A stretch of DNA of 3,460 bases from Escherichia coli (lineage in GTDB: Bacteria; Pseudomonadota; Gammaproteobacteria; Enterobacterales; Enterobacteriaceae): the NCBI RefSeq assembly GCF_003334255.1, contig NZ_QOWU01000121.1; one strand, given 5' to 3'. Positions 1 to 3,460 of the stretch are shown piece by piece. The notes under the pieces were generated by a model. The model made no database searches. It saw only the letters and a list, made by a program, of their open reading frames with translations, and had not been told where the DNA came from. The translations under genes were made by a program, and so were the position numbers. Position 1 is the first letter of the stretch. Each line of letters starts with the position of its first letter.

Positions 1-3000
1 ATGAGCGGAAAACCAGCGGCGCGTCAGGGAGATATGACTCAGTATGGCGGTCCCATTGTCCAGGGTTCGGCAGGTGTAAGAATTGGCGCGCCCACCGGCG
101 TGGCGTGCTCGGTGTGTCCGGGCGGGATGACTTCGGGCAACCCGGTAAATCCGCTGCTGGGGGCGAAGGTGCTGCCCGGCGAGACGGACCTTGCGCTGCC
201 CGGCCCGCTGCCGTTCATTCTCTCCCGCACCTACAGCAGCTACCGGACCAGGACACCCGCGCCGGTGGGAGTGTTTGGCCCCGGCTGGAAAGCGCCTTCT
301 GATATCCGCTTACAGCTACGCGATGATGCACTGGTACTCAACGACAACGGCGGGCGGAGCATTCACTTTGAGCCGCTGCTGCCGGGGGAGGCGGTGTACA
401 GCCGCAGCGAGTCAATGTGGCTGGTGCGCGGTGGTAAGGCAGCGCAGCCGGACGGCCACACGCTGGCGCGGCTGTGGGGGGCGCTGCCGCCGGATATCCG
501 GTTAAGCCCGCATCTTTACCTGGCGACCAACAGCGCACAGGGGCCGTGGTGGATACTGGGGTGGTCAGAGCGGGTGCCGGGTGCTGAGGACGTACTGCCA
601 GCGCCGCTGCCGCCGTACCGGGTGCTTACCGGGCTGGCAGACCGTTTCGGGCGGACGCTGACGTACCGGCGTGAGGCCGCAGGCGACCTGGCCGGGGAAA
701 TCACCGGCGTGACGGACGGTGCCGGGCGGGAGTTCCGTCTGGTGCTGACCACGCAGGCGCAGCGTGCGGAAGAGGCCCGCACCTCTTCGCTATCTTCTTC
801 TGACAGTTCCCGCCCTCTCTCAGCCTCAGCGTTCCCCGACACACTGCCCGGTACCGAATACGGCCCCGACAGGGGTATCCGCCTTTCGGCGGTGTGGCTG
901 ATGCACGACCCGGCATACCCGGAGAGCCTGCCCGCTGCGCCACTGGTGCGGTACACGTATACGGAAGCCGGTGAACTGCTGGCGGTATATGACCGCAGCA
1001 ATACGCAGGTGCGCGCTTTCACGTATGACGCGCAGCACCCGGGCCGGATGGTGGCGCACCGTTACGCGGGAAGGCCGGAGATGCGCTACCGCTACGACGA
1101 TACGGGGCGGGTGGTGGAGCAACTGAACCCGGCAGGGTTAAGCTACCGCTATCTTTATGAGCAGGACCGCATCACCGTCACGGACAGCCTGAACCGGCGT
1201 GAGGTGCTGCATACAGAAGGCGGGGCCGGGCTGAAACGGGTGGTGAAAAAAGAACTGGCGGACGGCAGCGTCACGCGCAGCGGGTATGACGCGGCAGGAA
1301 GGCTCACGGCGCAGACGGACGCGGCGGGACGGAGGACAGAGTACGGTCTGAATGTGGTGTCCGGCGATATCACGGACATCACCACACCGGACGGGCGGGA
1401 GACGAAATTTTACTATAACGACGGGAACCAGCTGACGGCGGTGGTGTACCCGGACGGGCTGGAGAGCCGCCGGGAATATGATGAACCGGGCAGGCTGGTA
1501 TCGGAGACATCGCGCAGCGGGGAGACAGTACGCTACCGCTACGATGACGCGCACAGTGAGTTACCGGCGACGACAACGGATGCGACGGGCAGCACCCGGC
1601 AGATGACCTGGAGCCGCTACGGGCAGTTGCTGGCGTTCACCGACTGCTCGGGCTACCAGACCCGTTATGAATACGACCGCTTCGGCCAGATGACGGCGGT
1701 CCACCGCGAGGAAGGCATCAGCCTTTACCGCCGCTATGACAACCGTGGCCGGTTAACCTCGGTGAAAGACGCACAGGGCCGTGAAACGCGGTATGAATAC
1801 AACGCCGCAGGCGACCTGACTGCCGTTATCACCCCGGACGGCAACCGGAGCGAGACACAGTACGATGCGTGGGGAAAGGCGGTCAGCACCACGCAGGGCG
1901 GGCTGACGCGCAGTATGGAGTACGATGCTGCCGGACGTGTCATCAGCCTGACCAACGAGAACGGCAGCCACAGCGTCTTCAGTTACGATGCGCTGGACCG
2001 GCTGGTACAGCAGGGCGGCTTTGACGGGCGGACGCAACGTTATCATTATGACCTGACCGGAAAACTCACACAGAGTGAGGATGAGGGACTTGTCATCCTC
2101 TGGTACTACGATGAATCGGACCGTATCACTCACCGCACGGTGAACGGCGAACCGGCAGAGCAGTGGCAGTATGATGGCCACGGCTGGCTGACAGACATCA
2201 GCCACCTGAGCGAAGGCCACCGTGTTGCCGTCCACTATGGCTATGACGATAAAGGCCGCCTGACCGGCGAATGCCAGACGGTGGAGAACCCGGAGACGGG
2301 GGAACTGCTGTGGCAGCATGAGACGAAACACGCATACAACGAGCAGGGGCTGGCAAACCGCGTCACGCCGGACAGCCTGCCGCCGGTGGAGTGGCTGACG
2401 TATGGCAGCGGTTACCTGGCGGGAATGAAGCTGGGCGGGACGCCGCTGGTCGAGTATACGCGGGACAGGCTGCACCGTGAGACGGTGCGCAGCTTCGGCA
2501 GCATGGCAGGCAGTAATGCCGCATACGAACTGACCAGCACATACACCCCCGCAGGCCAGTTACAGAGCCAGCACCTGAACAGCCTGGTATATGACCGTGA
2601 CTACGGGTGGAGTGACAACGGCGACCTGGTGCGCATCAGCGGCCCGCGACAGACGCGGGAATACGGCTACAGCGCCACGGGCAGGCTGGAGAGTGTGCGC
2701 ACCCTCGCACCAGACCTGGACATCCGCATCCCGTATGCCACGGACCCGGCGGGCAACCGGCTGCCGGACCCGGAGCTGCACCCGGACAGTACACTCACAG
2801 TGTGGCCGGATAACCGCATCGCGGAGGATGCGCACTATGTCTACCGCCACGATGAATACGGCAGGCTGACGGAGAAGACGGACCGCATCCCGGCGGGTGT
2901 GATACGGACGGACGACGAGCGGACCCACCACTACCACTACGACAGCCAGCACCGCCTGGTGTTCTACACGCGGATACAGCATGGCGAGCCACTGGTCGAG

Positions 3001-3460
3001 AGCCGCTACCTCTACGACCCGCTGGGACGGCGAATGGCAAAACGGGTCTGGCGGCGGGAGCGTGACCTGACGGGGTGGATGTCGCTGTCGCGTAAACCGG
3101 AGGTGACGTGGTATGGCTGGGACGGAGACAGGCTGACGACGGTGCAGACTGACACCACACGTATCCAGACGGTATACGAGCCGGGAAGCTTCACGCCGCT
3201 CATCCGGGTCGAGACAGAGAACGGCGAGCGGGAAAAAGCGCAGCGGCGCAGCCTGGCAGAGACGCTCCAGCAGGAAGGGAGTGAGAACGGCCACGGCGTG
3301 GTGTTCCCGGCTGAACTGGTGCGGCTGCTGGACAGGCTGGAGGAAGAAATCCGGGCAGACCGCGTGAGCAGTGAAAGCCGGGCGTGGCTTGCGCAGTGCG
3401 GGCTGACGGTGGAGCAACTGGCCAGACAGGTGGAGCCGGAATACACACCGGCGCGAAAAG
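1..3460 (+). CDS. rhs: Rhs family YD-repeat protein, conserved core region (RhsA/B/C-like); 5' end complete at the ATG at nt 1, 3' end truncated by the window edge
   Basis: Manual translation of frame +1 gives 1153 sense codons with no stop from the ATG at nt 1 to the window end. The N-terminus [42 protein letters not shown] matches what I recall of E. coli Rhs core proteins. Many YD-repeat units are present, for example [13 protein letters not shown] (nt 1084-1122), [13 protein letters not shown] (nt 1282-1320), [14 protein letters not shown] (nt 1723-1764), [14 protein letters not shown] (nt 1909-1950), [14 protein letters not shown] (nt 2230-2271), [16 protein letters not shown] (nt 2833-2880) and [16 protein letters not shown] (nt 3001-3048). 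Codons are GC-rich at third positions. The paralog (rhsA, rhsB or rhsC) cannot be assigned from memory, so the symbol is family-level only. The upstream RBS and promoter are outside the window. Confidence 0.95.

Follow-up and report, generated by a model that had tools for sequence, protein, structure and literature searches.

A GC-rich, GATC-free Rhs core carried as a direct repeat at the rhsD and rhsE loci of Escherichia coli

The window analysed here is a stretch of 3,460 nucleotides of Escherichia coli DNA (contig NZ_QOWU01000121.1 of assembly GCF_003334255.1) that corresponds to codons 1-1153 of an Rhs core gene of the RhsD/E subfamily, beginning with an ATG at position 1 and running past the end of the window. 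A similarity search of 5,426 complete E. coli genomes located the window at 100% identity in three sibling strains from one source (G1/2, G6/7 and G8) and at 99.9% in 27 further records. Taken together, our results make it very probable that the window represents the conserved 3.46 kb at the 5' end of an RhsD/E toxin gene, that its guanine-plus-cytosine (GC) richness is shared across an enterobacterial clade, and that it is carried as two direct repeats that exchange sequence with one another. The features of the window are as follows.

1-3460, plus strand: first 1153 codons of the Rhs core gene (reading frame, NF041261 match, 100% identity to annotated genes)
1-129, plus strand: N-terminal segment with a literal PAAR tetrapeptide at amino acids (aa) 5-8 and a weak PAAR-like match (translation)
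136-369, plus strand: DUF6531 domain, aa 46-123 (Pfam PF20148, E=2.8e-18)
781-840, plus strand: Ser-rich low-complexity linker, locally C/T-rich (translation, skew)
958-2700, plus strand: YD/RHS repeat array, aa 320-900, predicted to form a shell (Pfam, TIGR01643, solved shells)
249-459, no strand assigned: putative conversion tract with 15 of the 23 differences from the rhsD of K-12 and WI2, all 15 carrying the WI2 rhsE allele in the window
2136-2612, no strand assigned: rhsE-divergent segment, in which the rhsE of K-12 and WI2 differ from rhsD at about 47 sites
1-3460, no strand assigned: perfect direct repeat common to the rhsD and rhsE loci, with identity extending to 3470 (rhsD copy of G8 against rhsE-locus copy of G6/7)
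1-3460, no strand assigned: GATC-free tract, lying inside an interval of 4,691 bp (G1/2, L001 18973-23664) or 4,840 bp (K-12, 522084-526924) without a Dam, MutH or SeqA site

Frame +1 is free of stops over all 3,460 nt, against 12-44 stops in each other frame. The original prediction of an Rhs core, made from the letters alone, is borne out by the NCBIfam model RHS_core NF041261, which is matched with 2535.6 bits (cut-off 2000) over model positions 1-1156 of 1261, the window ending before the model does. It is further supported by the DUF6531 domain, by tandem YD/RHS repeats (TIGR01643, E=9.6e-48, 6 stretches; Pfam PF05593, RHS_repeat, 13 hits in aa 320-900, the 8 with E<=0.001 all lying in aa 365-678) and by the RefSeq annotation of a 100%-identical match as rhsD. 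The Pfam PAAR_motif match is weak (E=0.27 over aa 3-20), the peptide reading ...KPAARQGD.... Solved Rhs effectors of type VI secretion systems (T6SS), namely Tse5 of P. aeruginosa (8cp6, E=2e-100) and those of Photorhabdus (7q97, 1e-62), Salmonella bongori (8qjd) and P. protegens (RhsA, 7pq5), match aa 290-1100 with E values from 2e-100 to 2e-26. They are distant relatives, and neither the cleavage motifs nor the toxin falls within the window; no E. coli Clade I Rhs structure was found among the structure matches. At the identical loci the full gene comprises 1,407-1,426 codons, with the DPxGL motifs that close the core (DPMGL and DPIGL) at aa 1232 and 1254, beyond the window, followed by a variable AT-rich toxin tip and then, where an immunity gene is expected, by ybbC or ydcD. 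The YD-repeat shell would enclose this variable C-terminal toxin. At the rhsE locus vgrG lies directly upstream of the rhs gene, and at the rhsD locus it is not found there; a vgrG (T6SS spike) gene just upstream is the usual layout for T6SS-delivered Rhs toxins, such that a comparable role may be envisaged for the gene examined here.

The window is matched in 3,901 of the 5,426 genomes, at a median of 6 places per genome, mostly cores of the A/B/C type. To count D/E-type cores we used segment 300-1700, which has no exact run of 24 nt or more in common with A/B/C cores, and found 5,963 places spread over 3,565 of the 5,426 genomes (median 2 and at most 5 per genome), indicating that the core is not single-copy. 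K-12 has one full D/E copy (rhsD, 99.3% identical over 3,460 nt) together with a 1.26-kb rhsE remnant at 97%. The K-12 rhsA, rhsB and rhsC cores share just 76.8-76.9% identity with the window, and their longest stretches of exact match to it measure 30-44 nt; among themselves they are 97.2-99.65% identical (rhsA and rhsB, 99.65%). These values place the window in the RhsD-E subfamily of Hill and co-workers (Clade I of Jackson et al. 2009), the latter paper describing subfamilies ABCF, DE and GH (PMC2935791). The rhsA, rhsB and rhsC genes resemble the window in architecture, in their GC-rich (62%) and GATC-free cores and in bearing the same RHS_core name; they differ from it in sequence, and the published duplication involves rhsA and rhsB, not rhsD (PMC2935791). 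The original prediction of several near-identical multi-kb copies thus stands as regards repetition and fails as regards number, D/E cores being present at a median of two and A/B/C cores being only 77% identical.

Locus assignment was by flanking genes (ybbP ... ybbC for rhsD; yncH ... ydcD with ISAs1/H-repeat genes for rhsE), with rhsC and rhsE of G1/2 placed by synteny; in that genome the full-length rhs gene between vgrG and ydcD defines the rhsE locus. The window is identical (100%) to the ybbP-linked rhsD of G1/2 and G8 and also to the vgrG-linked rhsE-locus gene of G6/7, and its locus of origin is therefore indistinguishable; the rhsE-locus gene of E. coli C has 3 mismatches to it. The rhsD and rhsE copies first diverge at nucleotide 3471, with the first amino-acid difference at residue 1178, so that the window is almost exactly the repeat unit, divergence beginning 11 bases beyond its end. 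K-12 rhsD (b0497) and rhsE (b1456) belong to the same subfamily and have the same locus flanks as in the matching genomes. However, whilst rhsE in the best-matching strains is full length, preceded by vgrG and equal to rhsD in its core, its K-12 counterpart is a pseudogene truncated at the 5' end, with a difference of 3-4%. RefSeq/PGAP also gives the name rhsD to genes at the yncH-vgrG-ydcD (classical rhsE) locus in several genomes, among them G6/7, G8, E. coli C and WG5; the gene name rhsD consequently does not identify the locus.

Two near-identical copies on the same strand are observed in K-12, WI2, G1/2 and G8, about 1.00-1.06 Mb apart (1,019,080-1,061,369 bp). In the best-matching genomes the substrate for hot-spot behaviour is present as two 3,470-bp direct repeats of 100% identity. 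Repeats of this length would be long enough for RecA-dependent unequal crossing-over leading to duplication or deletion, and, since the copies are direct repeats, the predicted outcome is duplication or deletion of about 1 Mb, not inversion. Accordingly, the duplications named in the original prediction are retained and the inversions, which it had offered as the alternative, are dropped, the copies lying on the same strand. The A/B/C cores, at 77% identity, would be too diverged to be efficient partners; the realistic recombination partners are two, not several. Hot-spot behaviour, in the form of recA-dependent duplication, has been described for rhsA and rhsB (Jackson et al. 2009, PMC2935791), the pair to which the family owes the name 'rearrangement hot spot'. 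The G6/7 and G1/2 genomes are not colinear, in that G6/7 carries the pepP-gcv-xerD-recJ-ygf genes, inverted, in place of rhsD some 1.06 Mb before rhsE (NZ_CP060061.1 915001-965000); in K-12 these genes lie near 3.0 Mb.

Mosaicism is visible in the alignments. Whereas the paralogues within the G strains are identical, 23 sites separate the window from the rhsD of K-12 and WI2, and 15 of these differences are clustered at 249-459. Within segment 2136-2612, rhsD-type sequence occupies the rhsE locus in G1/2, G6/7, G8 and E. coli C. As paralogues are closer to each other than orthologues, and as shared alleles occur in clusters, this pattern points to gene conversion between rhsD and rhsE, a process that we deduce from sequence comparison.

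The composition of the window sets it clearly apart from the surrounding chromosome. Its GC content is 64.45% (66.1, 50.0 and 77.2% at codon positions 1, 2 and 3 of frame +1), uniformly high along its length (58-71% in 300-nt windows; 47-77%, mean 64, standard deviation (sd) 6, over the 57 complete 60-nt lines), compared with 51.8% in 36 kb of flanking chromosome of a 100%-identical genome. The 31 flanking genes have a mean GC of 52.0% (sd 3.8) and a mean third-position GC (GC3) of 56.6% (sd 6.7), and the window exceeds them by 12.5 points (3.2 sd) in GC and by 20.6 points (3.0 sd) in GC3; its first- and second-position values (GC1 and GC2) are raised too, flanks having 59.8 and 39.8%. Across 495 background windows of 3,460 nt, drawn from about 290 kb of non-rhs E. 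coli DNA, GC averages 50.1% and reaches at most 57.3%, and the dinucleotide signature of the window lies far from its flanks (delta* x1000 = 172; flank chunks of equal length give 42 +/- 9 and at most 61). The GC enrichment is far beyond chance, the window not being at the genome average, and the originally predicted excess over E. coli with strong GC3 preference is confirmed by these exact values. The five spot counts behind that prediction are genuine line values (lines 1-3 give 57, 68 and 70, and several lines give 60), and the overall estimate of about 60% drawn from them is some 4 points low because the sample took in the lowest line, at 47% (line 35, 2041-2100). Boundaries are sharp: in G1/2 the 430-bp spacer upstream of rhsD has 27-28% GC (L001 19571-20000), and the toxin tip, ybbC and orphan-tip region have 29-37% (within L001 23601-26200), an orphan core fragment (L001 24601-25000) forming a peak of 45-54% amid the AT-rich tip region. 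The remainder and tip of rhsD have 42% GC overall, with profile values of 31-37% in the tip, and the rhsE tip has 48%.

Both protein and codon choice contribute to this excess. When the window protein was rewritten with the codon usage of the flanking genes it reached 57.4% GC (GC3 57.1%), which attributes about 5.4 of the 12.5 excess points (about 40%) to amino-acid composition and about 7 to synonymous choice. Arg makes up 9.8% of residues where the flanks have 4.6%, there is a shortage of Ile, Lys, Phe and Asn, and the favoured codons CGG, AGG, GGG and ACG are minor ones in the flanking E. coli genes.

A second compositional property of the window is the complete absence of GATC. Expected counts are 10.9 for independent, identically distributed bases and 8.2 and 7.6 under first- and second-order Markov models; shuffling of synonymous codons gives an expectation of 14.3 +/- 2.7, and 0 of 5000 shuffles reach zero. 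GATC is the most depleted of the 256 tetramers (z=-5.3, the next at -3.8). General avoidance of palindromes was considered and rejected, CATG, TGCA, AGCT and GTAC being mildly low and GATC a clear outlier. The 31 flanking genes, used as a control, contain 117 GATC against 121 expected. Avoidance is achieved by context-dependent choice of Asp and Ile codons: GAT serves for 20 of the 58 Asp residues overall, yet for 0 of the 20 whose codon is followed by C (p=0.002; in rhsA, p=1e-5), and codons with a final G make up 42% of the total, yet not one of them precedes any of the 21 ATC codons. Semsey and colleagues quote a maximum GATC spacing of 4,840 bp for the K-12 chromosome, the same as the K-12 interval around rhsD, and placed a GATC-free mismatch-repair reporter inside this gene (PMC5376664).

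The depletion extends well beyond the D/E subfamily. The rhsA, rhsB and rhsC cores of K-12, 23% diverged from the window, likewise contain no GATC where 11-17 would be expected; in five other genera the homologues hold 0-3 sites in place of an expected 7-19, and distant Rhs clades at about 28-30% aa identity have 2 against 19.3 (E. coli, L046), 4 against 16.0 (Salmonella) and 3 against 11.9 (Serratia). No depletion is seen in Pseudomonas (22 against 17), Burkholderia (41 against 36), Ralstonia (20 against 20) or Streptomyces (25 against 15.5), and exceptions to the pattern are Rahnella (14 against 16.9, not depleted) and Acinetobacter (10 against 14.9, borderline). Overall, significant depletion is found in 11 of the 14 enterobacterial cores or core fragments and is lacking in 4 of 5 cores from hosts taken as Dam-less, figures that come from a small sample in which kinship was ignored. 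Host Dam status in this comparison is general knowledge; Pseudomonas putida is described in a published paper as being without MutH. When neutral synonymous turnover was simulated from the subfamily split onwards, 6.7 new GATC per lineage were predicted, with a probability of 0.0003 of obtaining none, and the absence of GATC is therefore maintained, not merely inherited.

These observations allow a tentative proposal, which we regard as possible and as decidedly short of probable: that in enterobacteria with Dam and MutH the Rhs cores are under continuing selection for zero GATC, so constituting the chromosome's longest tracts blind to Dam, SeqA and MutH, with the effect of favouring conversion and tip exchange. 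Mismatched heteroduplexes would form between non-identical cores, whether these are paralogues or incoming core-plus-tip cassettes; in a GATC-free tract MutH could not incise such a heteroduplex, removing one layer of anti-recombination, and the weaker barrier would favour both gene conversion and the exchange of C-terminal tips that diversifies the toxins. If avoidance is selected through Dam and MutH, it would offer a testable handle on how toxin loci exchange sequence despite mismatch-repair barriers, and, if true, the proposal would explain why rhsD is a convenient GATC-free landing pad for chromosomal mismatch-repair reporters. A passive origin, in which GATC absence is the relic of a donor genome that lacked GATC and owes nothing to selection in the present hosts, appears somewhat unlikely. 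Avoidance could have been maintained elsewhere before acquisition and, to judge from the title of Wang et al. 1998 as cited in PMC2935791, the split between the D/E and A/B/C subfamilies is said to predate their acquisition by E. coli. Against such a relic, depletion is also found in enterobacterial cores of only about 28-30% aa identity, it is lacking in the Pseudomonas, Burkholderia, Ralstonia and Streptomyces genes, and the simulated turnover would have supplied new sites in each lineage. Though the sample is small and uncontrolled, the pattern points to selection linked to host Dam, MutH or SeqA rather than to a donor relic.

Precedent for selection against GATC exists in enterobacteriophages, in which, as in the window, the site is absent or nearly so in Dam+ and MutH+ hosts (McClelland 1984; Deschavanne & Radman 1991; phiX174 has 0 GATC where about 20 would be expected, PMC5014478). 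The GATC-free DNA examined here, however, belongs to a chromosomal gene family and not to a phage genome. Chromosomal DNA is normally fully methylated, and the explanations advanced for phages (under-methylation, MutH cleavage, raised mutation rate) are therefore not directly transferable. A search of full-text literature, which left older subscription literature outside its reach, found no description of GATC avoidance as a property of Rhs cores, and a prior description is possible; the GATC-free core is the sole element of this analysis with some claim to novelty, the rest being already known biology.

Turning to the origin of the GC richness, close homologues from Citrobacter, Trabulsiella, Enterobacter, Pseudocitrobacter, Atlantibacter and E. 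albertii are likewise high in GC (58-67%) and GC3 (66-81%), within flanks of 52-57% GC wherever about 10 kb of flank was retrieved. Distant Rhs genes range from 37% (Acinetobacter) through 60% (Pseudomonas) to 67% (Burkholderia and Streptomyces) and 71% (Ralstonia); these differences run in the direction expected from host genome GC, and the spread indicates that the protein family is not intrinsically GC-rich. High GC is thus an old and stable trait across the enterobacterial clade, compatible with ancient acquisition without amounting to proof of it. An anciently acquired module would have resisted drift towards host composition, and acquisition from outside of a GC-rich core with an AT-rich extension is the published view (PMC2935791). 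The original prediction, in which the GC content is consistent with a foreign origin, accordingly holds as far as atypical composition is concerned, as judged by GC, GC3, delta* and the use of CGG, AGG and GGG, and falls short as proof, given that 5.4 of 12.5 points are protein-driven, that the trait is clade-wide and that no donor is apparent.

Maintenance of the GC richness in situ by GC-biased gene conversion among paralogous or allelic cores, as opposed to retention from a donor, is unlikely. Conversion between rhsD and rhsE is visible, the trait is stable across genera with no drift to host GC, and within tract 249-459 the converted copy has the G/C allele at 8 of the 12 sites that change GC content; yet 8 against 4 is not significant, the substitutions are unpolarised, and cores are similarly GC-rich where no second copy is seen, as in Citrobacter (L019).

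Returning to the reading of the window as an old, GC-rich toxin-gene core held in two exchanging direct repeats, a number of points weigh against it. No rearrangement with rhsD and rhsE as endpoints was observed in the compared genomes. No donor lineage for the core was identified, and annotation within 20 kb of rhsD shows neither an integrase nor a tRNA nor a direct-repeat boundary (no search aimed at direct repeats was made), ISAs1/H-repeat transposase genes downstream of rhsE and rhsC being the only mobility genes seen; of the hallmarks of a genomic island, atypical composition is thus found and border mobility functions are not. In Jackson et al. 2009 rhs elements are regarded as ancient in the Enterobacteriaceae (PMC2935791), a statement that sits uneasily with the D/E homogenisation seen here. 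Lastly, the perfect identity of the two copies comes from three sibling assemblies with visible errors, G1/2 for example having a frameshifted ybbP and an internal stop in kdpD, and partial homogenisation of these assemblies by polishing may have occurred.

Hence it must be asked how far the repeat identity can be trusted. The rhsE copy of G1/2 (L010 11464-15654) has 12 small deletions, totalling 33 nt and mostly located in short base runs or short direct repeats, together with 3 mismatches, whereas that of G8 (L016 3489-7709) has 3 deleted bases and that of G6/7 (L014 5923-10146) none; these small deletions give rise to 'frameshifted' pseudogene calls in 2 of the 3 sibling assemblies. They are probably unpolished long-read errors inside the repeat, real pseudogenisation of the G1/2 copy being unlikely since the sibling assemblies disagree. 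Such assembly-specific deletions, and the further frameshifted or interrupted genes of G1/2, would also fit an identity between rhsD and rhsE in the G strains that is itself an artefact of assembly or polishing, with true copies differing by some 2-4% as in K-12 or WI2. We consider this distinctly unlikely: in the independent assembly of E. coli C the core at the rhsE locus departs from the window by just 3 mismatches, 27 further records match at 99.9%, WG5 matches at the vgrG locus and CP053787 at another, and the mosaic tract at 249-459 is present in the rhsD copy of all these alleles.

The assembly hazard foreseen in the original prediction is nevertheless real. Among 19 genuine homologous loci in a draft-genome sample of one genome per species, 10 are cut at, or no more than 150 nt from, a contig end, 16 lie within 2.4 kb of one and 3 are internal; Trabulsiella odontotermitis has four identical cores on four contigs. 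In published work, all five rhs elements, among them rhsD and rhsE, interrupted the 454 assemblies of K-12 derivatives and accounted for 5 of 62 common breaks (PMC3045373). The two copies also defeat both polishing and assembly from short reads. In E. coli the first 3.47 kb of rhsD and rhsE should be treated as one ambiguous repeat in read mapping, variant calling and polishing. Databases hold related oddities. PLSDB contains E. coli and Klebsiella 'plasmid' records, 2-19 kb long and made up mostly of an Rhs core, which are probably unplaced repeat contigs or mislabelled rather than plasmids bearing Rhs genes, as well as one 4.8-Mb 'plasmid' that is evidently a chromosome. Short E. coli-like Rhs core contigs (L025, L031 and L036; 77-100% aa identity) also occur in assemblies or metagenome-assembled genomes of Lentisphaerae, Collinsella and Desulfobacterota, most likely through contamination or mis-binning of repeat fragments from enterobacteria.

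That the high GC is set by the protein, a YD shell rich in Gly, Arg, Pro, Asp, Thr and Tyr, such that no foreign origin is needed, is very unlikely, for although the Arg content, the recoded value and the raised GC1 and GC2 described above all favour it, GC3 is 77.2% where flank codon usage would give 57.1%, the Acinetobacter core of the same fold family has 37% GC, and the dinucleotide signature is far from that of the flanks.

As to other features of the window, an Rfam scan gave nothing at gathering scores, internal DNA repeats are limited to short imperfect echoes of the YD repeats, and promoter-like and terminator-like sites occur at chance level. Chi sites (GCTGGTGG) and KOPS motifs number zero, which is unremarkable at 3,460 nt. 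Minus-strand open reading frames of up to 285 aa were rejected as genes, being without NCBIfam match and by-products of GC-rich coding DNA. GC skew and AT skew are negative across 601-1050, and within this region the Ser-rich stretch at 781-840, with its local reversal of GC and AT skew, breaks a sequence otherwise rich in Gly, Arg, Asp and Tyr. The core in the window is 33 nt longer than the A/B/C cores.

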